From NCBI GenBank assembly GCA_029936315.1, contig JAPYTD010000002.1, forward strand, positions 30,459-94,458: DNA of 64,000 nucleotides, given 5' to 3'. This DNA comes from Planctomycetota bacterium (GTDB lineage: Bacteria; Planctomycetota; UBA1135; UBA2386). The notes beneath the pieces were generated by a model, which did not search any database, was not told the DNA's origin, and worked only from the letters and a program-made list of their open reading frames with translations. Shown here piece after piece: positions 5,946 to 58,960 of this stretch (the stretch's first letter is position 1; each line of letters opens with the position of its first letter). The position numbers and the translations under genes were made by a program.

Positions 5946-5969
5946 CACGAACAAAGGGCTGCAGCGCGG

Positions 5970-6932: not shown

Positions 6933-6935
6933 GCT

Positions 6936-9248: not shown

Positions 9249-9405
9249 AAACGAGAAGGGGCGGTGCTGGGAGGTCGGAGATGGCACGTAACGAATCCTG
9301 CGATGGCACGGGTCGATGGCATAGCTGGCACTTGCTCGTTCCCGCCGCGAGTAGACGACGAACAAAGTCAGGCAGGGCTGGAACCACCCGTAGGCAAAGT
9401 GTATT

Positions 9406-9415
9406 TTGTGCACAA
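9406..9415. promoter_or_regulatory. Candidate GntR-type operator palindrome TTGTGCACAA in the divergent promoter region
   Basis: A perfect 10-bp palindrome sits in a locally AT-rich patch about 50 nt upstream of the aldehyde dehydrogenase ATG (9465). It is flanked by ACAAAGTCA direct repeats at 9362 and 9412. Its GT-N2-AC core fits the general GntR/FadR operator form. Confidence 0.3.
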
Positions 9416-9464
9416 AGTCATAATCGCCCCCTCCGCCCCAGGCAACCAAAAGCTCATCCACACC

Positions 9465-11039: not shown

Positions 11040-11061
11040 CCGGCCGCCAACCACCCGTGCA

Positions 11062-11943: not shown

Positions 11944-11951
11944 CCCTCCCG

Positions 11952-12890
11952 ATGGACACGAGTATCTACCACGGCTGTATCCCAGCCCTCATGACCCCCT
12001 GCACCGTCGACCGCAGTCCTGACTTCCCCGCCTTGGTACGCAAGGCCCAAGAGTTGATGACGGCCGGCATGAGTGGCGTCGTCTACTGCGGGTCGATGGG
12101 TGACTGGCCACTGCTTACCGACGAACAACGTCAACTTGGCGTGGCGGACCTGTGCTCGGCTGGCGTTCCCACTATCGTTGGCACCGGTGCCATCAACACT
12201 CGCTCGGCCACGGCGCACGCCGCCCACGCTCAGGAAGTGGGAGCAAGTGGCTTGATGGTCATCCCTCGGGTGCTGTCGCGCGGCACCTCGCCGGCCGCCC
12301 AAAGGGCGCACTTCGCCGCGATCCTGGCCGCGGCGCCCGACGTGCCGGCAGTGATCTACAACAGTCCCTACTACGGCTTCGAGACCCGCGCCGAACTGTT
12401 CTTCGACTTGCGCCGCGACTTCAAGAACCTGATTGGCTTCAAGGAATTTGGCGGCGCCGCTGCGTTGAGCTACGCGGCCGAGAACATCACGTGCGCGGCC
12501 CCCGACCTGACCTTGATGGTGGGCGTAGACACGCAGGTCTTGCACGGCTACGTGAACTGCGGCGCTACAGGCGCCATCACGGGCATTGGCAACGCCCTGC
12601 CGCGCGAAGTGCTGCGCATGGTTGCGCTCTGCACCCGGGCGCAAACTGGCGACGTCGAAGCCCGTCGCCTCGCCAGCGAATTGGAACAAGCTCTCGGCGT
12701 GCTCTCGTCGTTCGACGAAGGACCCGACTTGGTGTTGTTCTACAAGTACCTGTTGGTCCTAAATGGCGAAGAGCAATACCGCGTGCACTTCAACGAGAGC
12801 GACGCACTCAGCCCCAGCCAACAGGCCTTCGTCGAAGATCAATACCGCTTGTTCAAGGACTGGTGGGCCAACTGGCCTGGCGCTGAGTAG
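11952..12890 (+). CDS. DHDPS/NAL-family lyase, probable 1-pyrroline-4-hydroxy-2-carboxylate deaminase
   Basis: YCGSMGDWPLLTDEQR...VIPRVLSRG...VIYNSPYYGF...GFKEFGG (Schiff-base Lys) matches my recollection of the hydroxyproline-cluster subfamily. It lies next to KGSADH and a proline-racemase-family gene. Confidence 0.8.
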   Translation: MDTSIYHGCIPALMTPCTVDRSPDFPALVRKAQELMTAGMSGVVYCGSMGDWPLLTDEQRQLGVADLCSAGVPTIVGTGAINTRSATAHAAHAQEVGASGLMVIPRVLSRGTSPAAQRAHFAAILAAAPDVPAVIYNSPYYGFETRAELFFDLRRDFKNLIGFKEFGGAAALSYAAENITCAAPDLTLMVGVDTQVLHGYVNCGATGAITGIGNALPREVLRMVALCTRAQTGDVEARRLASELEQALGVLSSFDEGPDLVLFYKYLLVLNGEEQYRVHFNESDALSPSQQAFVEDQYRLFKDWWANWPGAE

Positions 12891-12914
12891 GTACGGCGAC
12901 GAAGCACCGCGCTG

Positions 12915-13970
12915 CTATGCCCACAGATCCCCAACCGTGAACCCGTTCGGGAACGGGTCCTCGGGATCGACCACGTATTGCGCAAACCCGGTGATCCACG
13001 CTGTGCCTCGCAGGGTCGGCACGACTGCTGCGTATTCACCAACCCGCGTTTCGCGCAGCAGTCGCCCGGTAAATACCGTGCCGAGGATGCCTTCGTGGCG
13101 AAAGTCCTGTCCGAGGCCGAGCTGCCCCTTTCGGTGCATCACCGCCATCTTGGCGCAGGTGCCAGTACCGCAGGGCGAACGATCGAGGCAGCCCTTCCAA
13201 GTCGAAGGTCGCGCCCAGTCCAGCTCTCCAGTCGATACGATCACCGTGTTGCGGCGGTCGGCGTGATCACCGGAGGGTGGAGCCGAGAGCTGAGCGATCG
13301 AAACGCCACGAATCTCCGGATTGTCGGGATGCACGCAGTCGAGTTGCTGCTGCGTCGCCGCCTTGATCATCTCGCCGATGCGCACTGCATCACCGGCTTC
13401 GTCCGGGGTCAGGCGCAGGCCCAGCTTCTCGGCATCAGCGATGACGTAGAACATGCCGCCCCACGCGACGTCGACCGTGACGGTACCGAGTTCGGGAACT
13501 TCAACCGACGCATCTAAGTGAACCGCGAACGCCGGCACGTTCTCGAAGGTCACCGACTTGACCTTGCCATTCTCCACCTCCGCACGAATCCGGATCAACC
13601 CGGCCGGTGCCTCGAGCACAAGATTCGTAATCGGCTCCTGGGATGGCACCATGCCTGTCTCGATCAGGACCGTTGCGACGGCGATGGTGTTGGTGCCCGA
13701 CATCGGCACGTACTCGACCTGCTCCATGATCACGAACCCGGCAGCCGCTTCCGGACGGGTCGGCGGCAAGATCAGGTTGCAGTTGGCGGCCGGGTAGCCG
13801 CGTGGTTCGCGCAGCATGCGCTGGCGAAGTTCATCGCCATGCTGTTCGAGGTACCTCATCTTCTCGAACATCGTCGTCCCGGGCACGTCGAGCACCCCTC
13901 CGACGATCACGCGGGCGGGCTCGCCAGCGGCGTGGGTGTCGACGGCTTGGATCATCTTGCTGACGCGCAT
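12915..13970 (-). CDS. Proline racemase-family enzyme (4-hydroxyproline epimerase-like) with a Ser/Cys catalytic pair
   Basis: MRVSKMIQAVDTHAAGEPARVIVGG...PMSGTNTIAV...DRSPCGTGTCAKMA. The start could be ATG 13970 or 13955. The first catalytic position is Ser (codon 13698..13700) where canonical members have MCGH. Confidence 0.88.
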   Translation of the reverse strand: MRVSKMIQAVDTHAAGEPARVIVGGVLDVPGTTMFEKMRYLEQHGDELRQRMLREPRGYPAANCNLILPPTRPEAAAGFVIMEQVEYVPMSGTNTIAVATVLIETGMVPSQEPITNLVLEAPAGLIRIRAEVENGKVKSVTFENVPAFAVHLDASVEVPELGTVTVDVAWGGMFYVIADAEKLGLRLTPDEAGDAVRIGEMIKAATQQQLDCVHPDNPEIRGVSIAQLSAPPSGDHADRRNTVIVSTGELDWARPSTWKGCLDRSPCGTGTCAKMAVMHRKGQLGLGQDFRHEGILGTVFTGRLLRETRVGEYAAVVPTLRGTAWITGFAQYVVDPEDPFPNGFTVGDLWA

Positions 13971-14210
13971 GCGATTCCTGGTTTGGCCTAGGCATGGCAC
14001 AAACAAGCAGCGCTTCAGCCAACCCGAACGCCACTACGACACGATCCTGCCCTTGCGAGAGCGCGTCAACCCGCAAGTTCAGGGAGCCGACCGAGCCCAA
14101 GACGCATGCTTGCAAGCACTGGACAAACCGCCGCTCGAGGGCGAGAGCAAGCGGGCCTGGTTCGGCCGTGTGCTCCAGAACCTGAGCCGCCAGAAACATC
14201 GCGGTGACCG

Positions 14211-15744: not shown

Positions 15745-18018
15745 CTACTTCATCGGCGGGATCTTCTGCTCTTCAAACCAAAGCGAGAGATGGCCGCGCG
15801 GCGGCATCAGCCCGCGCCGCGGGTGGTTGTAGCGCAGGAAGCTGGTGACGGCGACGGTCGCCTTGCCGCCTTCGAACTCGTCGCGGAAGTCGTTGTAGAT
15901 GTATGCGCCCCGAGGCTGTCCACCCTGCCGTTTGCCGACCCCGACATTCGACTGGGCCAGCAACTTGCCGTTGACCCAGATGGCATAGCCCTCGCCGGCA
16001 TTGACGTGAGCGCTACCCCCGACCAGGATCCGATACCGGTGGCCCTCTTTGAGCGGCGGAAACTCGAACGTGCCGCGGAGCAGCAGCACTTCCTTCTCCC
16101 ACATGGTTTTCGGCGCCTCGCCGCACCGGCAGAACAATGCCGTACAGCTTTCCGAAAGCGGCAGTAGCTTGCCTTCGAGCTGGCCGAAGGGCTGCAGCCC
16201 TTTCTTCCAACCGGCCTTGGCCGGGTCGAAATCGGGCGCGAACCAACTCGCCATGCCATCGGGATACGTTACCTCGCGGTAGCGGCTCCCCTTCTCCTTG
16301 GGCCGCGTCTCTGCTGGGTCGAAGCTGAAGTAATCCCACTGTGCGTGGTCTAGAGCGGGACCGAAGGAGTGCCAATCGTAATCGTCTACTCCGGCAGCGC
16401 GGTAGCAGTTGGCCAGCCCGAACATCGCACCCCGCACGAACTGGTTCGCGCGCTGTGGTCGTTCGCCGAGCACCTCCTGCAAGAGCGCCTTGTTGTAGCG
16501 TGGGTTGACGGCGTAGGACGCCGCAATGCCAGCGAGGATGATCGGCGCCAGCGCCTTTTGCGCGGCGGCCAACTCCACCTCCGACGGCTCCGCGGTCTCA
16601 TGTCGGGCGACGGGTTTCGGCCGGGAGGACCGCAGCAGCGGTGCCGCTTGGCCGCCAAGCAACCCAACCATCGCCCGGCCGAGGGCATCGCCAACCAACA
16701 TGTAGGTCTCGGCGTTACGGTTGTAGTGGTAGTCCTGGCTCCGCGGCGACTCGTCGACCTCGCGCCAGAAGTCGCGAATGTCGACCGAGGTCACGGTGCC
16801 AGCGAACTCGGGGTGTTGCGTTGCATCACCGACGGCCATCTGTGCCTTGAGGATCCTCAGGAACTTGTCCGACATGTTGTGTCCACCGAACCCGACGGTC
16901 GCAACCACAACGGGCAGCTTCGGCACCTGGAACTCCTTGCGCACGTCGAGGATCAGATTGACGAGGTTCTGCTCGTACTGCGCGATGGATTCCTCGGTGC
17001 CACTGTCCTTGTGGCCCTGAAACCAGGCGAAGCCAGCGATCTCGTATCCCTGCCCCTGGTAACCAGGAACGACGCTCTCGATGTTGGCGAGGGTCTTGTG
17101 CACACCCTCGATCATCAGCTTGTATTCGAGTGACTCCCACTCGCTGTCAGGGTCCGTGCGTCCGCTAGACGGCGGGCGAAAATCGAATCCCAGCGAGCGA
17201 TTGCCCATCGCTGTCTTGATGAGCAGAACCTGCTCGTCGTGGAACGTGCCCATCACGTGCCCGAAGCCGAGCTCCGGCCCGATAGACTTGCCGTTCGAGG
17301 TGGCACTCAGCGGCGAGCCCTTGCCATCCTTCGCGAGCCGGGCTTCCTGAACGTAGACATCTCGGCGCACGGTCCAGTTGCCCTCCCCGTCGACCAGCCA
17401 GGGGAACTTCCCCTCGCGCTTGGCCACGGCCTCGAGGTCGCCATTGCCGAGCAGGTCGACCTTCTCAAGCCAGAACCTCGGCGGGTCACCCTTGAAAGCT
17501 GTGATCTCGAATGCGTACCTCGTGCCTGGCTCGAGAGTCACATGGACCGGCTCGTCGAGCACTGGACGGCGGTAGACTTCCTTGCCATCGAGCTCCATCA
17601 CGCAATGAGAGTTCTCACGGAAACCGCAGTGCAACTGATAGACACCTCGCTGCAGAACCTCTAGCTGCCCCTTCGCGATCGGCTTGTCGGCCTCTGTGCC
17701 GTCCGGCAGGTAAACGAGTAGCTTCGAGACCTTGAAGTTGCCGACGCGATAGATCTGCAACGGCCCGTCGGGTACGGCGGGATCGGAGCTGAGGTAGACC
17801 CCGGTGTAGACGTTTCGCGCCCCACCGAGATCCCCCATCCCGACCATGTTGGACTGGCCGGCGAGGATGTAGACCTTGACCGGCTTACCGGCGTTGCCCG
17901 GCTCGGCATTCGGGTCGGACAATCGGGCCGGAACCTGCGCCTCGGCGCAAAGGGCGAACAAGGCCAGGAAGACAGCTACCGCCACACGGCTGCATACACG
18001 CGATGGGTTGTTGGACAT
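15745..18018 (-). CDS. Secreted sialate-O-acetylesterase-like (DUF303/SGNH) protein with PA14-like insertion and C-terminal beta-sandwich-like domain
   Basis: I place the start at ATG 18018 (MSNNPSRVCSRVAVAVFLALFALCAEAQ). VKVYILAGQSNMVGMG ... SIGPELGFGHVMG...VLLIKTAMGNRSL...RPPSS is paralogous to 23370..24380. Confidence 0.85.
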   Translation of the reverse strand: MSNNPSRVCSRVAVAVFLALFALCAEAQVPARLSDPNAEPGNAGKPVKVYILAGQSNMVGMGDLGGARNVYTGVYLSSDPAVPDGPLQIYRVGNFKVSKLLVYLPDGTEADKPIAKGQLEVLQRGVYQLHCGFRENSHCVMELDGKEVYRRPVLDEPVHVTLEPGTRYAFEITAFKGDPPRFWLEKVDLLGNGDLEAVAKREGKFPWLVDGEGNWTVRRDVYVQEARLAKDGKGSPLSATSNGKSIGPELGFGHVMGTFHDEQVLLIKTAMGNRSLGFDFRPPSSGRTDPDSEWESLEYKLMIEGVHKTLANIESVVPGYQGQGYEIAGFAWFQGHKDSGTEESIAQYEQNLVNLILDVRKEFQVPKLPVVVATVGFGGHNMSDKFLRILKAQMAVGDATQHPEFAGTVTSVDIRDFWREVDESPRSQDYHYNRNAETYMLVGDALGRAMVGLLGGQAAPLLRSSRPKPVARHETAEPSEVELAAAQKALAPIILAGIAASYAVNPRYNKALLQEVLGERPQRANQFVRGAMFGLANCYRAAGVDDYDWHSFGPALDHAQWDYFSFDPAETRPKEKGSRYREVTYPDGMASWFAPDFDPAKAGWKKGLQPFGQLEGKLLPLSESCTALFCRCGEAPKTMWEKEVLLLRGTFEFPPLKEGHRYRILVGGSAHVNAGEGYAIWVNGKLLAQSNVGVGKRQGGQPRGAYIYNDFRDEFEGGKATVAVTSFLRYNHPRRGLMPPRGHLSLWFEEQKIPPMK

Positions 18019-18214
18019 CTTGTTGAGGTGTTCCAAAGTAAACACGGCCGCTTTCTCCTCACGGCACGGAATCCCCACACAACGTTCCAAACGGCTCCTA
18101 GACACCCTAGGACGGTCGAGCAATCGCATAGGCACTGCAGAACTAAACTCCAGCGACCGTCGCAAAGAGCAATCCCCCACCGATCGCCACTGCTGCACGG
18201 TGATCCAAGCGACT

Positions 18215-19432
18215 TCAGAGCAGTTCGGCAAGCGCAGTGATCAGCCGCTCAACTTCCGCCGGCGAGTTGTAGTGCACGAGGCTGGCGCGGATCACTCCGT
18301 CCCGGTCCATGAGACCCATGTCGCGAATCGCGCGATAGGCGTAGAAGTGGCCCCAGCGCAGGGCGAGTCGGCGCTCGTCGAGCCGCGGCGGAAGCTCACT
18401 GGAACGCATCCCGTCGACGCTGAAGGCGACGGTCGGAACGCGACGCGCGGGGTCAGCCGCTGGCACGCCGTGCAGCGTCACGCGCGGATGTTCGACGAGG
18501 AAGTCGATCAGCGGTGCGATCAGCTGCGACTCCCATGCGGCGACATCGGCGAAGATCCCTGCCAACCGCTCCGCACTTGGCTCCGGACTCTGTGCCCCCT
18601 CGTCGAGGCTCGTCAGGTATTCGCAGATACCGGGCAACGAGGCCACCAACTCGTGATTCACGCCCCCCGGCTCAAGCTTGCCCGGGACGTCGTGCTCGCC
18701 GAAGAAGAAGTGGCACTGACCCTTCGCATGCTCAAGAAGCTCACGCCTGCCGAAGAGCACCGCTTGGTGCGGACCGTAGACCTTGTAGAGGCTAGCGACG
18801 TAGAAATCGACGCCGAGCGAACGCACGTCGACAGCACGATGCGGGGCAAACGCCACCCCATCGACAAAGCTCCACGCACCCGCCTCGCGGATGCGTGCGG
18901 CGATGCTCGCCACGTCGTGAATCGTGCCCGTGACGTTCGGGCAATGCGTGAAGGCGACGAGTCGCGTGCGGTCGGATAGCAGCGGCTCCAGGTCCTCAAG
19001 TTCGAGCGCGAGAGTCTCTGGCCGGAAGCGCCACTCCTTGACGACGACACCGCGCTCTTCGAGCCCCCGCCACGGACCAATGTTTGCCTCGTGATCGAGA
19101 TTGGTGACGATCACCTCATCGCCGGGCGCGAACCGCGCGCCAAGAGCGCACGCCATGCGCTGCACCAGCACCGTCGTCGAGGCACCATGCACGATCTCTC
19201 CCGGGTCCGCATTGAATAGGCACGCCGCCGCGCGGCGTCCTGCGTCGACGGCTGCAACCGCGTCCCGGGACAGCGCGTAGGTTGCCCCATGTTGCACGGC
19301 ATGGCGTTCCATATAGCCCGTGAGACGCTCGATCACGGGGCGGGCGGGCACCGTTCCGCCCGCGTTGTCGAATAGCGCCCAGTCGGATCGCAGGGCAGGA
19401 AACGAGGCGCGGGCGGCATTCAGGTCGAGCAT
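18215..19432 (-). CDS. Class-V aminotransferase, cysteine-desulfurase-like family
   Basis: FPALRSDWALFDNAGG...THCPNVTG...ASLYKVYGP (PLP Lys)...LRWGHFYAYR...VIRASLVHYNSPAEVERL. The position equivalent to the SufS GHHCA cysteine reads GHFYA. Confidence 0.85.
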   Translation of the reverse strand: MLDLNAARASFPALRSDWALFDNAGGTVPARPVIERLTGYMERHAVQHGATYALSRDAVAAVDAGRRAAACLFNADPGEIVHGASTTVLVQRMACALGARFAPGDEVIVTNLDHEANIGPWRGLEERGVVVKEWRFRPETLALELEDLEPLLSDRTRLVAFTHCPNVTGTIHDVASIAARIREAGAWSFVDGVAFAPHRAVDVRSLGVDFYVASLYKVYGPHQAVLFGRRELLEHAKGQCHFFFGEHDVPGKLEPGGVNHELVASLPGICEYLTSLDEGAQSPEPSAERLAGIFADVAAWESQLIAPLIDFLVEHPRVTLHGVPAADPARRVPTVAFSVDGMRSSELPPRLDERRLALRWGHFYAYRAIRDMGLMDRDGVIRASLVHYNSPAEVERLITALAELL

Positions 19433-19500
19433 GGCGCAGAGAGCGTAACGTCACCGAGCCGGCGGCACCCCTTCTGCGCTGCCCCACCAATCTGGCAGGA

Positions 19501-21228
19501 CTACTTGTTCGGAGTCATGTACTCGAACCGGGCCAGATACCTGTCCACTTCTAGAAACCAAGCCAGCGGATGCGAGGCCTTGCCGTCTTTGGTCGAAGCC
19601 AGGCGTTGCTGCGCGGCGCTAGCGTAGACGGTGTCCGGATGGTCCCTGAGGATCGCCTCGATCGCCGAACGATCCTTGGTCGCGCATGCGGCCATGTAAG
19701 CGCGTCCCGCCGCCAGAACCCGCACTCCAGACCTCGTCGCCATGCGTTTCGTATAGGGCCGGAAGCGCCCATCGAGGGAGTTGCCGAACTTCCCTCGAGC
19801 CTTCTCGATCAACCGCGCAACACCGACCAGATCGCCAGTCGCGCCAACATGCGAGATGCACTCGAGCAGCCAGTCCGCCTCGACTTCGATCACGACCTTG
19901 AAGTAATGGCGTAGGAACCGGTCCACCTTGGTCTTGGCGGTCGCCGTCTTCAGGACTTGTGCCGCGCCAACATAGTTCTCGAACGACAACGCGTGGTAGA
20001 CGTCGATCAAGCTCGGGTCTTGGATGTCGCTGAGGCCAAAGCCAGGCGGCATGAACAGCTCTCCCGTGCTCGCTTGGCAAGGGTGCATGAACTTGTTGTC
20101 GCGCGCGTAGGTGCTGGTGTAGCAGTTGCCAAAGCGCCCAACGCCAACCTTGTTTCGCTTCATCGAGTAGAGCGGGCCGGTGTGGCCTCCGCCGTAGCTC
20201 AGGGCGTACAGGTATCGCCGGCCATTGGCACCACCGCCTGCCCCCTCACCGGACCCGTTGGTGCCGAAACGACGCAGACGGTCCGTGAACCCCCTCTTGC
20301 CCGGCAGGGTTGACATGTGGCCCGAAGCGTTGCCGTCGACCCGATCCTTGGAGTGGTCGCGCGTTGCCGCGCAGGCCAACATATCCGTCGACCAAGAGAT
20401 GATGCCCATCAGCATGCGGATCTCGTTGGCATAGAGAACGAACTCGGCCTCTTCGTAATCGATCAGGCGCGCCTTCGCCGCATTACCAAGCAGAACGGCC
20501 CCGGCACCAGCCGGTGCGACGGAACTCGCGAGCGCCATTGTGCGGTGGAGGTGGTCAACGTGCTGTTCGTAGCTCCGCGCCTTGGAAAGTGGCGGCATTG
20601 CGATTCCAGTCGGCGCAAACTTATCCGTCGTAGGATCCTCTCCCAGTTCGAGCGCTTCCCGCACATCGTTCCGATAGCCGTTGAACTCCCACATGCGCCG
20701 CGACATAGCCTTCGATGCCTTGGTCTGGATGGCGCCAACGTCTGGCAATATCAGCTCGCCGACCTTCGTTGCCGGCATCAGGAAGTGCTGCTGAAAGTGG
20801 AGCTGGGTCGACGGATTGAGGATGTAGTTGCGCCAGACTCGGCGCGTCATTGCCACCTCACGAAGTTCCGCGTCGGAGAGCGAAGCCAAGTGGCGGTGGT
20901 ACACAGCACGAATTGGCTCGTCGAGTATCACCGCGTAGCTTCGCTCGAGCGCGGCCAGTTTGTGATCGATGACCTTCTCAAGGCTCAGCCATGCCACCGG
21001 AGCGTCGAGCACCAGCCGAAACTGCTTGCGTCGCGTCGCAGCATCCTCGTCTTCAGCTGGCGGCTTCGCCAAGTACTTCAGAGCTTCCTGAATCTCGGGT
21101 GCGAGGTCACGAACCATCGCAGGCGCGGCCTTAGGAACACGTTGGCCGGAGCGGTCCTGATCGGATCTTTGCCCGGTCAGTGAAGAGGCAGCAATGCAAC
21201 AGGTGAGGATGACTAAGGGGCAACGCAT
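19501..21228 (-). CDS. Secreted CAP/SCP (YkwD-like) domain protein with long helical flanks; paralog B
   Basis: Signal peptide MRCPLVILTCCIAASSLTG. CAP-like core: ANEIRMLMGI..W...LACAATRDHSKD....GHMS..PGKRGFTDRLRRFG...GEGAGGG...YGGGHTGPLYS...KVGVG. It is paralogous to 24447..26165. Confidence 0.72.
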   Translation of the reverse strand: MRCPLVILTCCIAASSLTGQRSDQDRSGQRVPKAAPAMVRDLAPEIQEALKYLAKPPAEDEDAATRRKQFRLVLDAPVAWLSLEKVIDHKLAALERSYAVILDEPIRAVYHRHLASLSDAELREVAMTRRVWRNYILNPSTQLHFQQHFLMPATKVGELILPDVGAIQTKASKAMSRRMWEFNGYRNDVREALELGEDPTTDKFAPTGIAMPPLSKARSYEQHVDHLHRTMALASSVAPAGAGAVLLGNAAKARLIDYEEAEFVLYANEIRMLMGIISWSTDMLACAATRDHSKDRVDGNASGHMSTLPGKRGFTDRLRRFGTNGSGEGAGGGANGRRYLYALSYGGGHTGPLYSMKRNKVGVGRFGNCYTSTYARDNKFMHPCQASTGELFMPPGFGLSDIQDPSLIDVYHALSFENYVGAAQVLKTATAKTKVDRFLRHYFKVVIEVEADWLLECISHVGATGDLVGVARLIEKARGKFGNSLDGRFRPYTKRMATRSGVRVLAAGRAYMAACATKDRSAIEAILRDHPDTVYASAAQQRLASTKDGKASHPLAWFLEVDRYLARFEYMTPNK

Positions 21229-21264
21229 GGTGATGGTCTGGAGAGTCAGTGGGTCACTGCACGG

Positions 21265-23163
21265 TCACCTGCGCTTGCTGCTCTTGCCGAGCACGATTTC
21301 TGCGAACCCCAACGGTAGGCCGGCCTTGCCGCCTCGGGTGATCACTTTCAGAGTCATCTTGCGGACAGTGCGTATCCTCATGAACTCATACACAGTAGGT
21401 GCCAGTGGATTCGGATTCATATCGATGATGACCGACCGCTTTTCCTTGTTCCAAGTCACCTCGACTTGGCGAATCAGGCCGATGCGCTTGATGTCCTCAC
21501 GCCGCTTGAATGGCTGCGTCAAGATCAACCGCCGGGCCTTGACTTTATCGTCAAACTCGAATGTCAACGTCGGTGCCTGATCCGCCGCGGCACAAAGCCA
21601 CTCCGTGTGAATCAATCCATCCGCAGCACGCGCAGCCGTCTTTTGGTTGCTGCTGGCTGCGATCGCCACCTTGAGGCCTTTCAACTGGTTGCCTTCCTGA
21701 ATCGTCGCGAGGCCTTGCATCCACGGTTCGATCACGTCACGGATCTTCACTTGCATGGGCAGCGACTTGATCGTCACCGTGCGATCCGTTCCGCCCGGCG
21801 GAACATCCGGCGCGATGGCGATGACGCGTGCCTCGATGGTGTGCGTTCCGTGCGACAGTTGCACGCTGCGGTGGATGAACGTGGTGACGTTGTTCCAGGC
21901 CTTCGTTGGGTCGGCGGGTAGCTGGCCAAGGATGCGATCGCCTTCCAGATACTCCACCCTCAGGATGCGCAATCCGTATGCGGCGTGCTCGCTCAATAGG
22001 CGCTTGCCGAACCCTTGGATGTAGAGCATCAGGGGTTGCTGGCCAGCGCCGCGCAGTTCGATGTCGTCACCTTCACGGCCGGAGGCGAACAGGTGTCGCG
22101 ACTTACCTCCGGCGCCCGAGCCGGTTTGCGGCCCGCCCTTGGTCGCCCGCCGCAAGAAGAGCAGCGCGAAGCAGGTGTTGTAGTGTTCACCCCAACCACC
22201 GTTCTTCTGTCGATTAAGAATGACGCGGGCTCCGTCGACGTACCACCAGTGGTCGCCGAACTGCTCACGCTGGGCCAGGCCGCCAACCCGCTCCATGCCA
22301 TAGAGGTAGTACAGCAACCACCGGCCGCCCTGCCCTGGCTTTTGATCATGCGTCACGCTGAAGTACACATCGAGCCAGCTCAAGCCCGCGACGAGTGCGC
22401 GGTTGAGGTTCCGGCGCGCTTGCTTCTTCATCCTCTTGCCGAGGCCGATCTCACAGATCTTCAGGATCGAGACTCCAGCCGTTGTCATCGTGCCCGTCGC
22501 CTGGTGCGGGGCACCGTCCCTTCTCGCCCGGTATTCGAAACCCGCCACCTCACGTTGGCCAACGCCCGTTCTGCCGGTGATGGCGACGTCAACCATGTGT
22601 AGATCTTCTTGGTGCCTGAGCGTGCCCTCGATGAGGTTGAGCCAAGCATCGCGCGGAACTTTCAGCCCGGCCTTGTTCGCAGTCCACAGTCCCAGCGCGG
22701 CGTATTGCGAGTTGGATAGGTCTTGCCCCCCCTGCGGATAGGCCCAGGTACCGTTATTGCTCTGATTCCGGAGCATCATCTCCAGCAACTCCCTGAGCCG
22801 ACTGAGATGTGCCCGATCATTGGTCACGCTGTACGCGAGCATCATGCAGGCGATCGCGTAGGTCCTCGGCGGCGTCACGCTGTCGAGAAAACCAAAGGCC
22901 CGCTTGATAGCCGGATGCTGCATCGACACACCGCAGTTGAGCAACGCATAGACGCAGAGCCCGGTCTGCCCACCGACGTCATTGCCAACGACGCCAAACG
23001 AGCCGTCACGAAGCTGAGCATCCAGGAGGCGCTCGACGCCATCCGCAATCGCGGCATCGATTCGCGGCTTGAGCTTGAACTCATCTGGATGAACTTTCTG
23101 AGCACTGAGTGGTGCCGCAGCGAGTGCGCCAATGAGTGTTGCAATGAAAACGACGTGACGCAT
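21265..23163 (-). CDS. Secreted prenyltransferase/squalene-oxidase-repeat (alpha/alpha toroid) protein with C-terminal galactose-binding-like domain
   Basis: ATG at 23163 gives MRHVVFIATLIGALAAAPLSAQ. Repeats such as QLRDGSFG, NNGTWAYPQGG..SNSQYAALGLW and GGWGEHYNTCFALLFL are typical of this repeat family. The C-terminal region ...AADGLIHTEWLCAAADQAPTLTFEFD... is discoidin-like. Confidence 0.8.
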   Translation of the reverse strand: MRHVVFIATLIGALAAAPLSAQKVHPDEFKLKPRIDAAIADGVERLLDAQLRDGSFGVVGNDVGGQTGLCVYALLNCGVSMQHPAIKRAFGFLDSVTPPRTYAIACMMLAYSVTNDRAHLSRLRELLEMMLRNQSNNGTWAYPQGGQDLSNSQYAALGLWTANKAGLKVPRDAWLNLIEGTLRHQEDLHMVDVAITGRTGVGQREVAGFEYRARRDGAPHQATGTMTTAGVSILKICEIGLGKRMKKQARRNLNRALVAGLSWLDVYFSVTHDQKPGQGGRWLLYYLYGMERVGGLAQREQFGDHWWYVDGARVILNRQKNGGWGEHYNTCFALLFLRRATKGGPQTGSGAGGKSRHLFASGREGDDIELRGAGQQPLMLYIQGFGKRLLSEHAAYGLRILRVEYLEGDRILGQLPADPTKAWNNVTTFIHRSVQLSHGTHTIEARVIAIAPDVPPGGTDRTVTIKSLPMQVKIRDVIEPWMQGLATIQEGNQLKGLKVAIAASSNQKTAARAADGLIHTEWLCAAADQAPTLTFEFDDKVKARRLILTQPFKRREDIKRIGLIRQVEVTWNKEKRSVIIDMNPNPLAPTVYEFMRIRTVRKMTLKVITRGGKAGLPLGFAEIVLGKSSKRR

Positions 23164-23369
23164 GGATGCGGACAATACCAAAGATGCCGCGGACCGGTGA
23201 ATCGGGACGTGTGATTCTGCTCTAAAACGTGGCCCCGCAGCCAGCAAGGGGCGCTGCCAAACCCCATAGCATGGTGATGCGCGATCCGACCAAACTACCA
23301 GTGGCCTGATTTCGACCCAGCGAACCATCAGCAGGCGCCGAGCAGCGTTTTTGGCTCGGAGCTAGGAGC

Positions 23370-24380
23370 CTACTTCTTGCCGACGAGGATCTTGATCATC
23401 GCTTGTGCCGAGGCATCGCCGACCAGGCAATAGCTCTCCGCGCTGTTGTGCCAGTGGCTCTTTTGCCGGCCAGGTTTGTGTATTTGGAAGTGTCGGGTCG
23501 GGACCGCGGTGCATCGATTGTGCCTGGCCGCGGCAGCGATTTGCTGTGGCTCGATACTCTTGCCGAGGAAGCCGGCAACGCCCGAAGCCTTCGGACCACC
23601 CATCCCGCTTGTCGCAATGACGAAGGGCAGGTTCTTGACGCCGAGGTCTTTGCGTAGGTCGACAATGAAGTTGCTCATGTTGGCCTCATACTCCTTCGCG
23701 AAGTTCTTGGAGCAGGCGTCGTTCCAACCCTGATGCCAGAGGAAGCCAACGATTTCGTAGCCTTGGCCGCGATAGCTTGGGAAGTGCTTCTTCAAGTTGC
23801 CGAGCACCATCTGCACTTCTTCGAGCATGCTCCGGTAGCGCAAGCCGAATTGCTGCTTGATGTCATCGAGTGAGGCGTTGGGGTTCTTCTTCTTCTTCTT
23901 TGCCAGCATCGCTTGCAGGGTGGCGTGCTCTGGCAGCTTCGAACTCGGTGGGCGGAAGGTTGCGGCAAGCGCCTGACCACCCCAGGCAGTCTTGATGAGC
24001 AGCACCTGCGACTTGTAGTGCTCGCCGAGGAGGTGACCAAAGGTGAGTTCGGGGCCGATGCTCTTGGCGTTGGCTCCGAGTCCGACCCTCAGGTTGCACT
24101 TGATGACGGATCCTCTCCCTGGCTTGTGAAAGTACCAGACATCCTTGCGCTCAACCCATTCTCCATCCCTCTTCAGATAGGCAAACTGCTGTTGCGCGGC
24201 GGCGTAGTCGAGATCGCCGTCCTTGTTCATGCTGATCCTGCCGTGGCCTTGCATGTTGGATTGGCCGGCGAGGATGAACACCTTGATCTTCGCCTTGGAG
24301 CCAGTGTCCTGGGCCAGGATCGAGTGCGGTGTGCACAGGGCAGCCAGAGTCGCCGTGATGTAGAAGAATACGCGCGTCAT
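23370..24380 (-). CDS. Secreted sialate-O-acetylesterase-like (DUF303/SGNH) protein
   Basis: Signal peptide MTRVFFYITATLAALCTPHSILAQ. IKVFILAGQSNMQGHG...SIGPELTFGHLLG...VLLIKTAWGGQAL..RPPSS...GFLWHQGWND. Confidence 0.85.
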   Translation of the reverse strand: MTRVFFYITATLAALCTPHSILAQDTGSKAKIKVFILAGQSNMQGHGRISMNKDGDLDYAAAQQQFAYLKRDGEWVERKDVWYFHKPGRGSVIKCNLRVGLGANAKSIGPELTFGHLLGEHYKSQVLLIKTAWGGQALAATFRPPSSKLPEHATLQAMLAKKKKKNPNASLDDIKQQFGLRYRSMLEEVQMVLGNLKKHFPSYRGQGYEIVGFLWHQGWNDACSKNFAKEYEANMSNFIVDLRKDLGVKNLPFVIATSGMGGPKASGVAGFLGKSIEPQQIAAAARHNRCTAVPTRHFQIHKPGRQKSHWHNSAESYCLVGDASAQAMIKILVGKK

Positions 24381-24446
24381 GGGAGTGGTTCGCTGAGAGG
24401 GTTTCGGTTGGCGGTGGCCTGATCAGTAAAAGGTCGCCTGAAACGG

Positions 24447-26165
24447 CTAGCGCTTTGCCGTCGGGGGGTATTCGTACTTCTCGACGGTTGCCTGCTTGCC
24501 GACAAAGTAGGCGAACGCTGCGCCCGGTTCGTCAGCAGCTTTGGCGGCCTCTGCGTAGGCGGTGCCGCCATACCTTCTGATGAGTGCCCTGCTGGCCTTG
24601 GCTCGCCCCGCGCCGTCAAGATCGCCTAGCACCATGCGATGGAAGGCCTCGCCGGCCTTCAACGCTTGCGCGAGTGCGGGATCGGCCAACATGGCGAGAC
24701 GGAGTATGCCCTCCTCCTCGAATGCCGGGTTGCCCTTGAACATCTTGGCGCCAGCCAGCAGTCGACGGCGAGCCTCGTAGACGTCCCCGGCGTCTTCGAT
24801 CGCAGCTGATGAATCTAGGATCCAGTCGATCTCGGTCTGCACCGCCGCGCGGAAGAAACGCAACAGCATGCTCGTCTTCTCGTTTGAGGGACGAGCCTTC
24901 GCCAAGGCCCGAGCGGCATGACCAAACTCACCTGACTGCAGCTTTGAGAAGATCGAGCGGGCTGATCCGCGCAATCGGGTGTTGCTCCAACCGGGAGGCA
25001 GCACGAGTTCGTTGGCCACCGCCTGACAGTCGTGCACGATGCTGCGATCGGTGCCGTAGATGCTGGTGTAGGCGTTCTTCCGCCGACCGACGCCGACGCA
25101 GTTCCTCCTCAGGGAGTAGAGCGGCCCGGTATGACCACCGCCATAGCTCAAGCCGTTGATGTAGCCGCGGCCGCTGGCGCCGCCACCGACACCCTCACTG
25201 CCAAAGCGCCTGGCGCCCATGCGACGGGATCGATCGGTGAAGCCGCGCTTCTCCTTGATCGACGACATGTGCCCCGTGGCCAGTCCTTTGGTTCGGTCAT
25301 TGGAATGGTCGCGAGCAACTGCGTTGCCGAGAGGGTCCACGCGCCAGACGATGGTGCCGGAGAGCATTCGCATCTCATTGCCGAAGAGCACGTACTCCGC
25401 TTCCTGCACATCGATCTCTTGCGCCGCCTCGTCGTTGTACATCAGAACCGCCTGGGCTCCAGGCGGCGCGACGGTGTGTGCCAAGACCATACTGCGTTCG
25501 GTATGATGCAGACTATCGAGGAAGGTTGGTGGTTGGTCGAGAGGCGCGTACGCGATCTGCGTGGGAGAGAGCTTGCCGACCGTTGGATCCGTTTGCATGC
25601 CGAGGGCTGTGTGGGCCATCGCTTGGTACTCGCCAAGTTCCATCAGGGTCTTGCGTTGGCTGCACACTGGCTCGTCCTTCACGTCTTCCGCACGCAGTAG
25701 CAAGGCTTCGCCGGCAGCCTTCATCGGCGCCAGAAACTCGGCTTGAAAGTTGCTCCGGTGCCCGCCATGGAGCACGTAGCTCCGCCACAAACGTCGAGCG
25801 CGCTGCACGATCATGATCTGTTCGTCGCTGAGACTGATCAGGTGCCTCATGTAGGCGTCCTCAAGCCAGGCTTGCAACGCAACGGTGTACTTGCCGCGCA
25901 AGGACGCCAGTTGTTTGTCGATGTGCTGCAACGCCAATCGCGCACCACCAGGACCGAGGCCGATCACCTGCTCGATCAGGTATCGACGTTCGCTGCGGTC
26001 GATCGACTTGGCGAACGTATCGAGGCCCTCGACAATCTGTCTCTTCTGTTCGCTGCTGAGCTTCGCATCGGTGGCCGGACTCGGCGCGGCCTTCTTTGCC
26101 ACCTGACCTGGGCAAGCGGAGACCAAGAGCACGAACACAGCCAGCGATGAGATGCACGTTATCAT
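24447..26165 (-). CDS. Secreted CAP/SCP (YkwD-like) domain protein with long helical flanks; paralog A
   Basis: ATG at 26165 gives MITCISSLAVFVLLVSACPGQ. The core GNEMRMLSG..W....GNAVARDHSND...GHMS..KEKRGFTDRSRRMG...SEGVGGG...YGGGHTGPLYS...CVGVG is colinear with 19501..21228. Confidence 0.72.
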   Translation of the reverse strand: MITCISSLAVFVLLVSACPGQVAKKAAPSPATDAKLSSEQKRQIVEGLDTFAKSIDRSERRYLIEQVIGLGPGGARLALQHIDKQLASLRGKYTVALQAWLEDAYMRHLISLSDEQIMIVQRARRLWRSYVLHGGHRSNFQAEFLAPMKAAGEALLLRAEDVKDEPVCSQRKTLMELGEYQAMAHTALGMQTDPTVGKLSPTQIAYAPLDQPPTFLDSLHHTERSMVLAHTVAPPGAQAVLMYNDEAAQEIDVQEAEYVLFGNEMRMLSGTIVWRVDPLGNAVARDHSNDRTKGLATGHMSSIKEKRGFTDRSRRMGARRFGSEGVGGGASGRGYINGLSYGGGHTGPLYSLRRNCVGVGRRKNAYTSIYGTDRSIVHDCQAVANELVLPPGWSNTRLRGSARSIFSKLQSGEFGHAARALAKARPSNEKTSMLLRFFRAAVQTEIDWILDSSAAIEDAGDVYEARRRLLAGAKMFKGNPAFEEEGILRLAMLADPALAQALKAGEAFHRMVLGDLDGAGRAKASRALIRRYGGTAYAEAAKAADEPGAAFAYFVGKQATVEKYEYPPTAKR

Positions 26166-26616
26166 CGTGCGTAAGCCTATCAGACGTGCGCGGGCGCCGA
26201 CCGTCTGCGATGGGCTCCCATTCTGGTTCTGGCTATTCGTGCGCGACGTCTTGCTTGGCAAGCGACGAAAGCCACCTCAGCGTGCACGCGTGAGCACTTC
26301 GATCAAGTGCACGCACAGCAGCAACTCAGAACACGAATACCAAAGTCCCCTACCGCGATGCCGCTTGCCAGGAAGATGCGGCACGACCGATTGCATGATC
26401 TCGGTCAACGCGCGACCGCTGCGGTGCGTGCGTGGCCCGCCACATGTGCGCAGCGTAACTCCACTGCAACGAGATCCGGTTTGCGGGCCGGGCGGCTGAC
26501 GATGGAGTATGATCGCATTCTCAGGTTGGCTTACCAGCGGCCCGGCCTCGCGCGTTAGCTATTCGTCTCGCCGGAAGCTGCCTGCCATACGCTCCACCCT
26601 TGCGCGCGACCGGACC

Positions 26617-27780
26617 ATGAAGACTCCCCCATCTCGTTCGTTCTTCGCCCACGCAATCACGGTCGCGGCACTCACGTGTGCTGTGTCGGCACCTTTGTCC
26701 GCACAATGGACCGGTGAATGGTCCATGGACATGAGCAGCGGCGCAATCGCGGTCGACATCTCCGGCAGCGGCAACGACGGCACGCTCGCAAACTTCAACG
26801 GAACCCCGTGGGTTCCCGGCATGGTAGTCAACGCTCTCTCGTTCGACGGTGTGGACGACTACGTATCGCTTAACGCGCAGGCTTCGATCTATGAAGGGCT
26901 GGGCGCACCGTATTCCGTTGCGTACTGGGTCAAGGCGCCGGCACAACCGAACGTGTTCGTCTACGCAGAGGGCGCGACGTCCAGCACCGCCATCTTGATC
27001 TTTGGCAGCGGCCAGTACCCAGCCCAATCGGACAAGTTCCGCGTCTACTGTCGCAACGATCAGGGCAATGCTCCGTTCAGCGGCCTGTCGAACGCCGTCG
27101 TCTATGACGACACCTGGCACCACATCGCTTTTGTCGATGTGTCGGGCCAGATCACCCTCTACGTGGATGGTGTGGTCGACAGCGGCAACATCTCCTACGA
27201 CCCTGCGCGCCTACCCGGCATGCCGGGTCATGGAACGTTTTCGATGACCACGACGGCGATTGGGGCCCTCGTGCGCGGTTCCGTCTGTTGCCACACGAAC
27301 GGGCTGGTGGACGACCTCCGCCTCTACAAGTTCGCGATGTCGCCCACGGACGTACTGCAGGCGATGGTCGGCATCCCGGTGCTGCCAACGTCGGCGAGCA
27401 TCGGCGAGTACGGAGTGGGTTGCGGAGCAGGTCCACTCGACCTTGCGCCCAGTGGCAGCGCCGTGATCGGTGGCTCTGGTCTGCAATTGCAGTTGCAGTC
27501 CGGCACCCCGAATGCATTCGGTTTCTTGGTTTGTGGCTTGGGCGCGATTGCTCCGATTGATCTGGGTCCGGCCGGTTTCAGCGGGTGCACGCTCTACCCG
27601 AACAACTTCGTTTCTGCATTCCTTGGCGTGCTCGATGCTGCTGGAACCGCACCGGCGTTCCTGTTCGCGATCCCGAACAACCCGGCCCTGGCCTTTACGC
27701 AACTCAACTGCCAAGCGGTAGCCCTGGATGCGGTCGGGCTTGAGTTCTCCGACGTAGTCGAGGCGACGCTCGGGAACTGA
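26617..27780 (+). CDS. Secreted LamG (concanavalin-A-like lectin) domain protein with shared C-terminal module
   Basis: ATG at 26617 gives MKTPPSRSFFAHAITVAALTCAVSAPLSAQ. LamG-like region: GNDGTLANFNG..W.PG...ALSFDGVDDYVSL...WHHIAFV...LYVDGV...DDLRLY. C-terminus: YGVGCGAGPLDL...FAIPNNPALAFTQLNCQAVALDAVGLEFSDVVEATLGN. Confidence 0.8.
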   Translation: MKTPPSRSFFAHAITVAALTCAVSAPLSAQWTGEWSMDMSSGAIAVDISGSGNDGTLANFNGTPWVPGMVVNALSFDGVDDYVSLNAQASIYEGLGAPYSVAYWVKAPAQPNVFVYAEGATSSTAILIFGSGQYPAQSDKFRVYCRNDQGNAPFSGLSNAVVYDDTWHHIAFVDVSGQITLYVDGVVDSGNISYDPARLPGMPGHGTFSMTTTAIGALVRGSVCCHTNGLVDDLRLYKFAMSPTDVLQAMVGIPVLPTSASIGEYGVGCGAGPLDLAPSGSAVIGGSGLQLQLQSGTPNAFGFLVCGLGAIAPIDLGPAGFSGCTLYPNNFVSAFLGVLDAAGTAPAFLFAIPNNPALAFTQLNCQAVALDAVGLEFSDVVEATLGN

Positions 27781-28040
27781 ACCCCCAGCGGCGACATCGC
27801 GGCTGGCGGCGTCAAACAAACAGCTGAACGTCTGCGCCGTTCGCGCGCAACGCCAAGCAGTTTGGCAATTCGAGCGCCTGTCCGGCTGACGAGCGAGGCG
27901 ATAGCCAATTGCGTGTGCTCACTGGCAGCACACTACGGAGTTGTCACCGGGCGCCATGCGGTTCTCGCCGAACGCAGCAACGCCCTCTAGGATTCTCGGC
28001 AGATCGAACTGCAACGTTCCGAGACACCGACAGAATCCGC

Positions 28041-29693
28041 ATGAAACATCTCCCCATCGCTCTCTCACTGGCCTTTGCACTCTGCACGGAGGCATCGGCG
28101 CAGCTGCACCTCGCCAACTCGTTTGGCGATCACATGGTCTTGCAACGTGACATCGGCGCCAGGGTCTGGGGCACCGCAACACCTGGCGAAACCGTTGCGA
28201 TCGCTTTCGCCGGCAAGTCGGCAACGGCAACAGCAGCGAAGCACGGTCGCTGGATCGCCACCCTACCTCCCATGCCGGCTAACGCAGAAGGTCGAGAGCT
28301 CGTCGTGACCGGCTCTAGCGACAGCGTGCGAATCAGAGATGTACTCGTCGGGGATGTCTGGGTCTGTGGCGGGCAGAGCAACATGGCATGGACCATGAGC
28401 GGATCGCGCGATGCAGACATCGAGATCGATTCCGCCGATACGCCCCAAGTCCGCTACCTGCGTATGCCACAGATCGCGATCGCCGAGCCACAGACCGACT
28501 TTCCCGTCGCGAGCCCGACGCACAAGGTTGGCAACTGGCGACTCTGCACTCCAGAGCAAGTCGAAGCCTGCACCGCCGTGGGTTACTACTTCGCCCGCCG
28601 CCTACATCGTCGACTACGGATTCCGATCGGAATCATCGACACCTCCTGGGGCGGCACGATGGCGCAACACTGGTGCTCCAAGGCAACGCTTCGAACGTTC
28701 GCCACGATGAACTCCTACTTCGCCACCTACGAAGCCAAACGCAAGGAATGGATCGACGGCGGCAAGGAAGAGGGAGCCAATCGACGCTACGAGGCCGACG
28801 TCGCAACTTGGCAGAAAGCTCGGGATGCCGCCAAGGCTTCCGGAGAGCGCGAGCCACGTCGCCCCAACAAGCGCAACTACGAGAACCCGGGTGACCAAGG
28901 ACACCCAGGGGCGATGTTCAACGGCATGATCGAGCCAATCAAGAACACGGCACTGCGCGGAGTCGTGTTCTACCAAGGCGAAAACAATTCATTCGGAGAG
29001 ACCTGGAAGCCCTTCTCGAGCACATTCCCCGCCGTCATCCGTGACTGGCGGAGAGCATTCGGAGTCTCCGATTTGCCGTTCTGCAACATCCAGATTGCCG
29101 GCTGGAGCACGCGTCGCACGATGACCTACGACATGAACCACCACACCAACATCATTCGTGAGGTGCAGCTGGATACCTGGCAAGACACCGAGAACACCGG
29201 ACTCATCGTCACCTACGACTGCAACAGCAATGGCAGCATCCACCCGGGACGCAAACTGCCCGTCGGGGAACGCACGGCGCGGTGGGCGCTAGCCGAGGTC
29301 TACGGGACAACGGACCGTCGCAACAAGCGGCCAATCGAATGGCGCGGCCCGCTCTACGAGGGAATGCGGATCGTCGACAACAAGATCTTCGTCTCGTTCG
29401 TCAAGGAGACTGCGCGAGGACTGCGACTCAACAAGGATGTCGCGTTCGGCTTCTATGTGGCCGGCGAGGACAAGACCTTCCACCACGCATCGGCACGCAT
29501 TCACGGCAAGACGAGCGAGGTCGAGATCTGGTGTGATGCTGTCAAGCAACCGGTGGCGGCACGCTACGGCTGGTCCAATCTTCCGGCAGGTACACTTCTG
29601 AACGGTCGCGAGCTACCGGCCTACCCGTTCCGCACGGACAACTGGCCGATGGAGCCCCATCAGTCGACCGGATCCTACGTTCGCGGGAAGTAG
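28041..29693 (+). CDS. Sialate O-acetylesterase-family protein (classical long form)
   Basis: ATG at 28041 gives MKHLPIALSLAFALCTEASAQ. LANSFGDHMVLQRD...VWVCGGQSNMAW...GIIDTSWGGT...VVFYQGENN. Confidence 0.88.
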   Translation: MKHLPIALSLAFALCTEASAQLHLANSFGDHMVLQRDIGARVWGTATPGETVAIAFAGKSATATAAKHGRWIATLPPMPANAEGRELVVTGSSDSVRIRDVLVGDVWVCGGQSNMAWTMSGSRDADIEIDSADTPQVRYLRMPQIAIAEPQTDFPVASPTHKVGNWRLCTPEQVEACTAVGYYFARRLHRRLRIPIGIIDTSWGGTMAQHWCSKATLRTFATMNSYFATYEAKRKEWIDGGKEEGANRRYEADVATWQKARDAAKASGEREPRRPNKRNYENPGDQGHPGAMFNGMIEPIKNTALRGVVFYQGENNSFGETWKPFSSTFPAVIRDWRRAFGVSDLPFCNIQIAGWSTRRTMTYDMNHHTNIIREVQLDTWQDTENTGLIVTYDCNSNGSIHPGRKLPVGERTARWALAEVYGTTDRRNKRPIEWRGPLYEGMRIVDNKIFVSFVKETARGLRLNKDVAFGFYVAGEDKTFHHASARIHGKTSEVEIWCDAVKQPVAARYGWSNLPAGTLLNGRELPAYPFRTDNWPMEPHQSTGSYVRGK

Positions 29694-43453: not shown

Positions 43454-43464
43454 GGACAATGTCA

Positions 43465-58887: not shown

Positions 58888-58960
58888 TGTGTCAAGCACG
58901 CCGAGAGACACCATAGAGACTACTGCGGTGGTTTGCCCCGCGCGTGCGCACGCGTATCGT

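Follow-up and report, generated by a model that had tools for sequence, protein, structure and literature searches.

A block of six minus-strand genes was analyzed in a 64,000-nucleotide (nt) stretch of DNA from a Planctomycetota bacterium (assembly GCA_029936315.1, contig JAPYTD010000002.1, positions 30,459 to 94,458), which is referred to below as the window. The genes encode two CAP-type proteins (CAP-A and CAP-B), two SASA/DUF303 esterases, a secreted alpha/alpha-toroid protein and a class-V aminotransferase. An earlier note, made from the sequence alone, had read the block as the product of a joint duplication of a CAP and a DUF303 gene, with the toroid gene in the middle. In the comparison with other loci, the evolutionarily fixed unit was the toroid gene followed by CAP-B, often with CAP-A upstream. 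All six open reading frames (ORFs) were present in the ORF listing of the window, consecutive and co-oriented, between positions 15745 and 26165, as the note had reported. With its start codons, the intergenic gaps were 66, 206, 36, 68 and 196 nt in transcription order. The features of the block are given below, followed by the two genes divergent from CAP-A; lengths are in amino acids (aa).

24447..26165, minus strand: CAP-A, predicted secreted long-form CAP protein, 572 aa, from the ORF, the AlphaFold2 (AF2) model, Foldseek and hhalign to P0238
25050..25418, minus strand: predicted CAP (SCP/PR-1-like) core of CAP-A, residues ~250-372, from invariant columns, secondary structure and the P0238 alignment
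24450..24983, minus strand: C-terminal helical domain of CAP-A, residues ~395-572, common to DUF6288 proteins
23370..24380, minus strand: short SASA/DUF303 SGNH-type carbohydrate esterase, secreted, 336 aa, from Pfam PF03629
21265..23163, minus strand: alpha/alpha-toroid, beta-sandwich and CBM32-like protein, secreted, 632 aa, from profile, AF2 and Foldseek
22141..23088, minus strand: single alpha/alpha-toroid domain of that protein, residues ~26-341, with QxxDGSWG-type repeats, from the profile against PDB and AF2
21286..21711, minus strand: its C-terminal CBM32 / F5-F8 type C-like module, residues ~485-626, from profile, Foldseek and homologs with PF00754
19501..21228, minus strand: CAP-B, 575 aa, paralog of CAP-A, 36 nt downstream of the toroid gene
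18215..19432, minus strand: class-V aminotransferase / cysteine-desulfurase-like protein (TIGR01976 family), from Pfam and NCBIfam
15745..18018, minus strand: long SASA esterase, 757 aa, from Pfam SASA (1.1e-19)
26509..27780, plus strand: LamG (Laminin_G_3) protein, divergent from CAP-A, from Pfam (2.4e-16)
27909..29693, plus strand: third SASA-domain protein, divergent from CAP-A, from Pfam SASA (8.5e-15)

The earlier note had assigned signal peptides to all the proteins but the aminotransferase. The result of a Kyte-Doolittle scan was in agreement with this, as a hydrophobic N-terminal segment was found in five of the six proteins and none in the aminotransferase. Two of the ORFs could be extended upstream, that of the long SASA to a TTG at 18231, where it would overlap the aminotransferase gene, and that of the toroid protein to an ATG at 23328; for both, the N-termini at the start codons of the note were typical signal peptides. 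In NCBI, the identical protein for the long SASA has a length of 766 aa, 9 aa more than with the start codon of the note. In the two divergent genes, the leader of the annotated ORF was non-hydrophobic, and the true starts are probably the Met at about 26614 for the LamG protein and the Met at about 28041 for the third SASA protein.

CAP-A and CAP-B were colinear end to end over about 560 residues, with 37% identity (E 4e-93), which bears out their earlier description as colinear paralogs. Neither protein had a match in Pfam at E<=0.1, in NCBIfam or among PDB sequences, and eight isolated CAP core segments had no Pfam match even at E<=10. A profile of 43 sequences of the family found nothing relevant in the PDB, and a comparison by hhalign with human GAPR-1, the sequence of which was confirmed to be identical to 1SMB, was not significant. 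The AF2 model of CAP-A, built on alignment A1, had a pLDDT (predicted local distance difference test) of 91.9, with helical regions at residues 38-250 in the N-terminal part and 400-564 in the C-terminal part. In a Foldseek search of this model against the PDB, bacterial SCP/CAP structures were the sole meaningful matches, namely 4IFA (E 7e-4, probability 1.0), 4H0A (probability 1.0) and 4D53/BB0689 (probability 1.0, TM 0.71 on the target).

The profile search with A1 over 1.84 billion representatives returned 586 proteins. Many of them were proteins of 340-400 aa that aligned over the N-terminal helical domain and the core with E of 1e-29 to 1e-16. These short relatives exceeded the Pfam CAP threshold (38-57 bits vs 21.1) precisely within the aligned region, and a cluster member of one of them, from a Pirellulaceae genome, carried the source name 'uncharacterized protein YkwD'. 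Furthermore, hhalign of A1 with the Pfam-CAP-positive protein P0238 gave a probability of 99.5% (E 5e-23, 337 columns). Residues H287, H299, E324 and H345 of CAP-A were invariant in 43 sequences and aligned with the HSxDM, xxH, AENI and SPGH motifs of P0238; an equivalent of the second Glu was not assignable. Because of the fold found by Foldseek and the transitive homology through the short Pfam-CAP-positive Planctomycete proteins, CAP-A and CAP-B are assigned, from model and profile comparison, to a divergent long-form CAP family with a YkwD-like core between helical regions, as the earlier note had proposed.

Judged by the source names of the matches, nearly all full-length members of this family came from Planctomycetota, and they were annotated as hypothetical only. 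In the neighbour-joining tree, the CAP-A type and the CAP-B type formed separate deep clades. Orthologs of each type, at 56-68% identity, scored about 560-710 bits against their own type and about 255 against the other. In one further locus (L010:5481-9115, the same as L044), two CAP-family genes stood in direct tandem and a toroid gene did not lie between them; the contig came from a metagenome-assembled genome (MAG) binned as Anaerolineales, possibly by a binning error.

The C-terminal domain of CAP-A was TPR-like, with a weak BamD/YfiO-like signal, and a similar helical domain was found at the C-terminus of DUF6288 proteins (PF19805) of Planctomycetes. The hhalign probability between the two was 97% (E 1e-10), the CAP profile matched the C-termini of P0224, P0246 and P0235, and a local hidden Markov model of the domain matched the DUF6288 neighbour in L009 and L045 (E 7e-17). 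DUF6288 genes were neighbours of CAP-like genes in L007, L009/L045, L024 and L039, and SASA genes abutted them in L007 and L039. DUF6288 proteins differ from CAP-A and CAP-B in being a separate family, often with an N-terminal PDZ domain, and none was encoded in the window. The comparison of DUF6288 with the toroid profile by hhalign gave a probability of 18.6% with one sequence and 65% (E 6e-5) with four sequences, which is suggestive only of a family relationship between DUF6288 and the toroid.

The toroid protein had been described earlier as a toroid with prenyltransferase/squalene-oxidase-type repeats and a discoidin-like part, and both halves of this description agreed with the profile matches and the model. 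A profile of 44 toroid sequences matched the repeats of squalene-hopene cyclase in the PDB with E 2e-12 and, weakly, lanosterol synthase, and its C-terminus matched the CBM32 of a fucosidase (2e-7), the CBM32 of GH89 (2.5e-4) and the CBM of NanJ (0.04). The AF2 model (pLDDT 87.3) had three parts, with one helical barrel (residues 26-341) followed by a beta-sandwich (358-474) and, at the C-terminus, a jelly-roll. This last part was similar to the CBM32 structures 4a42 and 2v72 (Foldseek probability 1.0, TM 0.72-0.74), and it dominated the best 50 Foldseek matches of the whole model. CBM32/PF00754 was not matched by Pfam in the window protein at E<=0.1. More than 300 homologs were found, often with PF00754 (F5_F8_type_C), CBM_AftD or an N-terminal LamG fusion, the last in P0088, P0107 and P0186. 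The LamG protein of the window had only generic LamG similarity to the fusion protein P0107 (22% identity), so an argument from LamG-toroid fusion is weak.

Two other identities were considered for the toroid and rejected. The terpene cyclase reading failed on the single barrel of about 320 aa, on the absence of DxDD from the sequence and on the Pfam cyclase matches below threshold (SQHop_cyclase_C with 20 bits vs the cut-off of 26.1); the TIGR cyclase models were far below their cut-off. The thioester reading, as in the alpha-2-macroglobulin TED, was rejected in the absence of CGEQ, and the YfhM and TED_complement matches were marginal. From profile and model, the protein is best described as a predicted secreted toroid with carbohydrate-binding modules, not a terpene cyclase.

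All three SASA proteins of the window scored above the Pfam PF03629 cut-off of 24.8 bits, with 102 bits (4.9e-29) for the short SASA, 71.4 bits for the long SASA and 55.4 bits for the third. The short and the long SASA had 35% identity (E 5e-49) and the common blocks GQSNM, SIGPEL.FGH, VLLIKTA and RPPSS, as quoted in the earlier note. The GQSNM motif aligned to 2apj and 1zmb. In the region of the putative catalytic His (QDYHYN and QKSHWHN aligned), the His was kept in both proteins; according to the sequence alignment, the Asp two residues before it was found in the long SASA only, with Lys in the short one. The long SASA had an insertion of about 120 aa after GQSNM and a C-terminal extension of about 300 aa, and neither had a Pfam match. 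The insertion (residues 65-185) had been called PA14-like, a label that found no support, as Pfam gave no match at E<=0.05 and the PA14 domain in the protein at 43465-47664 of the window was not similar to it. At the C-terminus of the long SASA, ~225 aa (window 15748-16650) were a separable module, and a copy with 41% identity was present near the C-terminal end of a DUF6288 protein of 1240 aa (L007:812-4534). The gene for that protein belonged to a Phycisphaera MAG, where a CAP-like gene was 5 kb away, and a homolog of the third SASA was directly after the CAP-like gene in the same locus.

The long SASA was a member of a PVC family that comprised at least 3344 proteins at E<=1e-30, about 755-770 aa in length, from Planctomycetota and Verrucomicrobiota, and was far more widespread than the CAP family. 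The top 120 matches had 71-83% identity over the full length, and the source names in the family were in conflict ('sialate O-acetylesterase' vs 'alpha-galactosidase'). Moreover, the identity of the long SASA to SASA proteins encoded elsewhere was 37-59%, higher than its 35% to the short SASA of the window. The aminotransferase matched Aminotran_5 in Pfam and was above the NCBIfam cut-off for TIGR01976 ('cysteine desulfurase-like'), in accordance with its earlier assignment to class V. It had no homolog in any fetched locus, and it is probably a cytoplasmic, unrelated passenger gene.

The gene neighbourhood was surveyed in 26 genome and 32 metagenome loci with CAP-family genes (n=58), together with the contexts of selected homologs. 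The toroid gene was directly upstream of the CAP-B ortholog, on the same strand, in the window and in L001, L002, L003, L019, L022, L056, L057 and L065; in the eight loci outside the window, the distance measured by tblastn was 15-132 nt. The same arrangement was present in L072 and in the truncated contigs L053 and L058. As called genes, the two overlapped by 4 nt in L065 and were 5 nt apart in L072. CAP-A preceded the toroid gene by 144-349 nt in L001, L003 and L055; it was divergent in L002 and absent in L019, L022, L056, L057, L065 and L072. There was no SASA gene at the CAP-A/toroid junction in L001, L003 and L055, and because of this the short SASA appears, from sequence comparison, to have been inserted at this position specifically in the lineage of the window.

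The earlier note had expected CAP and DUF303 genes to occur together in related genomes. Neither a SASA gene nor the aminotransferase was found in the fetched flanks of any CAP-A/CAP-B orthologous locus, and a SASA gene was present in the fetched flanks of only three of the 58 CAP-family loci (L007, L024 and L039). In the whole fetched set, there were 5 SASA genes in 690 kb. A conserved CAP-DUF303 pairing is refuted by this low count, since a lack of co-occurrence was what the note itself had named as speaking against its proposal.

Other associations were scattered. In L072 and L057, the toroid and CAP-B pair was flanked by an RNB (RNase R-like) ribonuclease gene and a DUF7133/cytochrome c protein gene, with no esterases. 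These flanking genes were 91% and 75% identical to genes of the window at 58712-60766 and 2970-5954. In the window, distances of about 35 kb and about 15 kb separate these genes from the pair, a sign that the region has been extensively rearranged. A 62% ortholog of the window LamG protein was directly after CAP-B in L022, and sulfatases adjoined distant CAP-like genes. In addition, a SASA gene was divergent from a 40% toroid homolog in L029, and a full-length 59% ortholog of the long SASA (L071:849-3296) was two genes from a 42% toroid homolog. The co-occurrences of SASA, toroid, DUF6288 and LamG genes are hints of a loose glycan-related network, drawn from few observations and subject to ascertainment bias.

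Beyond the six genes, the window contained, at 5970-14006, an apparent cluster for the catabolism of X-Pro peptides and hydroxyproline, with the following members.

5970-6932: S33 alpha/beta hydrolase
6936-9644: DPP-IV
10885-11943: GntR/FCD regulator
11952-12890: DHDPS-family enzyme
12915-14006: proline-racemase-family enzyme

In L029, a 60% homolog of the S33 hydrolase overlapped the 3' end of the toroid homolog, with SASA and DPP-IV genes nearby, and this overlap may be remnant synteny. The window also held three PSCyt1/PSCyt2/PSD1 (DUF1549/DUF1553) sets, at 30400-34479, 36090-39268 and 41963-47664, two of them with adjoining DUF1501 partners. The protein at 43465-47664 in the last set had PA14 and beta-propeller-like domains in addition.

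The stretch was interpreted as a mosaic around the conserved toroid and CAP-B core, which would be a Planctomycete-specific set for handling glycans in the periplasm or at the cell surface; we give this reading a probability of about 0.5. The core consists of the gene for the secreted toroid, beta-sandwich and CBM32 protein with CAP-B directly after it, and the old paralog CAP-A usually stands just upstream. In this genome, a short SASA has been added between CAP-A and the toroid gene, and CAP-B is followed by a cytoplasmic cysteine-desulfurase-like gene and by a long SASA of a very widespread family. The toroid protein may bind extracellular carbohydrate by its CBM32 module and possibly also in the toroid cavity. 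The His/Glu/His residues of the CAP cavity may hold a metal or a ligand, and the CAP proteins might associate with the toroid protein by their helical domains. The neighbouring SASA esterases could then remove O-acetyl groups from the same glycan or glycoprotein.

The set would probably bind or process a glycan or glycoprotein outside the cell. We lean towards a glycan because of the CBM32 module of the toroid protein and the F5_F8_type_C, CBM_AftD and LamG domains of its homologs, and because the window itself has a LamG gene, three SASA genes and DUF1501/PSCyt genes, with sulfatases beside the distant CAP-like genes elsewhere. The recurrence of SASA genes next to toroid or DUF6288 genes in L007, L029, L039 and L071 points in the same direction, and it makes the joint extracellular role on a glycan, which had been suggested earlier, plausible.

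Several observations weigh against this interpretation. The link between the toroid and CAP-B was confined to one subclade. No toroid partner was found beside CAP-B-type genes of 56-61% identity in L018/L054 and L023, toroid homologs of 40-45% identity (L027, L029, L070 and L071) were without a CAP partner, and at L063, the locus of the closest CAP-A ortholog on a long contig, a toroid gene was absent from the downstream 10 kb that were fetched. Most of the distant CAP-like genes had mixed neighbours (such as PriA, LpxI and TPP enzymes), and the short canonical CAP relatives (L066-L069) had no conserved gene partner. Furthermore, SASA, LamG and sulfatase genes are abundant in the genomes of Planctomycetes, which makes arguments from neighbourhood weak. 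The sequence similarity of the toroid domain was limited to terpene-cyclase-type repeats, so the toroid may have a non-carbohydrate ligand. A scan of the stretch for promoters and terminators was uninformative, with counts the same as in shuffled sequences.

The alternative that survived best was that the toroid protein and CAP-B, with CAP-A, are a conserved cell-envelope or structural pair unrelated to nutrient glycans, and that it is by chance that SASA, LamG and aminotransferase genes adjoin the pair in a Planctomycete genome rich in gene families. This is possible but rather doubtful in our judgment. It would account for the conservation of the toroid-CAP pair alone, as well as for the loci L072 and L057, where the pair has the ribonuclease and cytochrome c genes as neighbours and no esterases. 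The TPR-like C-terminal domain with its weak BamD/YfiO-like signal would fit scaffolding between proteins. In addition, a YkwD mutant of R. sphaeroides was recovered in the screen reported in 'Mutations That Alter the Bacterial Cell Envelope Increase Lipid Production' (PMC5442454). The CBM32 module of the toroid protein argues against this alternative, and so do the module common to the long SASA and a DUF6288 protein, the LamG ortholog that follows CAP-B in L022, and the four other loci in which a SASA gene was again next to a toroid or DUF6288 gene.

The earlier note had also raised a sterol or terpenoid substrate, and this found no support. According to this explanation, which we consider quite improbable, the CAP domains would bind sterol or lipid as Pry1 and CRISP proteins do, and the toroid would bind or modify a terpenoid, in the handling of sterols, hopanoids or other lipids. 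Sterol binding is known for eukaryotic CAP proteins, and hopanoids are produced by many Planctomycetes; the predicted CAP fold of the core and the squalene-hopene cyclase match of the toroid profile are consistent with such a role. However, the toroid is one barrel, unlike the two-domain cyclases, and it lacks the DxDD motif and any cyclase match above the Pfam threshold. The secreted protein has a CBM32 module at its C-terminus, with carbohydrate-binding modules (LamG, CBM_AftD or F5/8C) in its relatives, and genes for lipid or terpenoid metabolism were not found nearby in the window. For the bacterial CAP structures that matched CAP-A, we know of no demonstrated lipid ligand.

The duplication of a CAP and DUF303 pair around the toroid gene, with both pairs acting as a module on one extracellular substrate, is the least probable explanation and can practically be set aside: each CAP gene of the window is indeed followed by a SASA gene, directly or one gene later, and in L007 SASA genes flank a CAP-like gene, at a distance of 235 nt on its downstream side and of 3.8 kb on its upstream side, but CAP-A and CAP-B are deep paralogs with their own orthologs, the orthologous loci are without SASA genes, an unrelated cytoplasmic gene interrupts the second pair, and the two esterases differ in architecture (336 vs 757 aa), the long one being closer to SASA proteins of other genomes and belonging to a family much more widespread than the CAP family.

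The relation of these proteins to known systems was also considered. Compared with the bacterial YkwD-type CAP/SCP proteins (PF00188; 4IFA, 4H0A and 4D53/BB0689), CAP-A has the same predicted alpha-beta-alpha core fold, and CAP-A and CAP-B have the same order of motifs (HSxD, xxH, (S/A)E(G/N), GGH and GVG) and are likewise secreted. They differ in that the Pfam CAP model is blind to both and GAPR-1 gave no significant match, in that the core is placed between a helical domain of about 215 aa on the N-terminal side and one of about 170 aa on the C-terminal side, and in the glycine-rich loops (SEGxGGG, LSYGGGHTGPLY). A conserved toroid partner and the large restriction of the full-length family to Planctomycetota, by source names, are further differences. 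The two SASA proteins of the block have the GQSNM nucleophile motif and the W(H/F)QG(x)xD block of the known SASA/DUF303 esterases (PF03629; E. coli NanS-type sialate O-acetylesterases; 2APJ and 1ZMB) and are secreted, but the short one has Lys for Asp, and the long one has its insertion and extension.

The toroid protein has repeat-level similarity to the squalene-hopene cyclase among the terpenoid cyclase toroids (SQHop_cyclase_N/C; 2SQC), and its C-terminal module superposes on the CBM32 of NanJ, GH89 and the GH29 fucosidase. Unlike the cyclases, it is a secreted protein with a single barrel, without DxDD and without the thioester motif CGEQ; unlike the CBM32-bearing enzymes, it had no known glycoside hydrolase or lyase catalytic domain that could be recognised. 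The clustering of secreted carbohydrate-binding modules, esterases and, in relatives, sulfatases is similar to that in polysaccharide utilisation loci. The six genes are different from such loci, as they include neither a SusC/D pair nor a glycoside hydrolase or lyase that could be recognised, and their content was not conserved beyond the toroid-CAP pair.

The CAP, SASA, 6-hairpin toroid and CBM32 superfamilies themselves are already known. As far as our searches show, the long-form CAP architecture, its invisibility to Pfam, the toroid partner and the helical domain shared with DUF6288 are undescribed, and no bacterial system of such composition was found in the literature, in agreement with the earlier note. 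Searches of the literature on bacterial CAP function and on Planctomycete SASA/sulfatase clusters found nothing mechanistic.

A bolder reading, which we regard as unlikely, would take the long-form CAP proteins as dedicated partners of secreted toroid carbohydrate-binding proteins, either toroid-CBM32 or DUF6288 by lineage, to which they would dock by the TPR-like domain shared at the C-terminus. With the SASA esterases added, the result would be an extracellular machine, specific to Planctomycetes, that acts on O-acetylated glycans or on glycoproteins rich in Pro/Hyp.

For the block in this genome, the reading as a duplicated module is corrected by the present results, with the esterase genes as lineage-specific additions. 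The structures of bacterial CAP/SCP proteins such as YkwD, BB0689 and SAV1118 have been solved, and to our knowledge there is no agreed biochemical function for them. The questions raised by the locus are whether the toroid and CAP proteins interact, which ligand the CBM32 module binds and what occupies the CAP cavity. A long-form CAP family with a fixed toroid-CBM32 gene partner and a docking-like helical domain offers a testable handle on the function of bacterial CAP proteins, and the bolder reading above, if true, would for the first time assign a biochemical role to a CAP-domain protein of bacteria.

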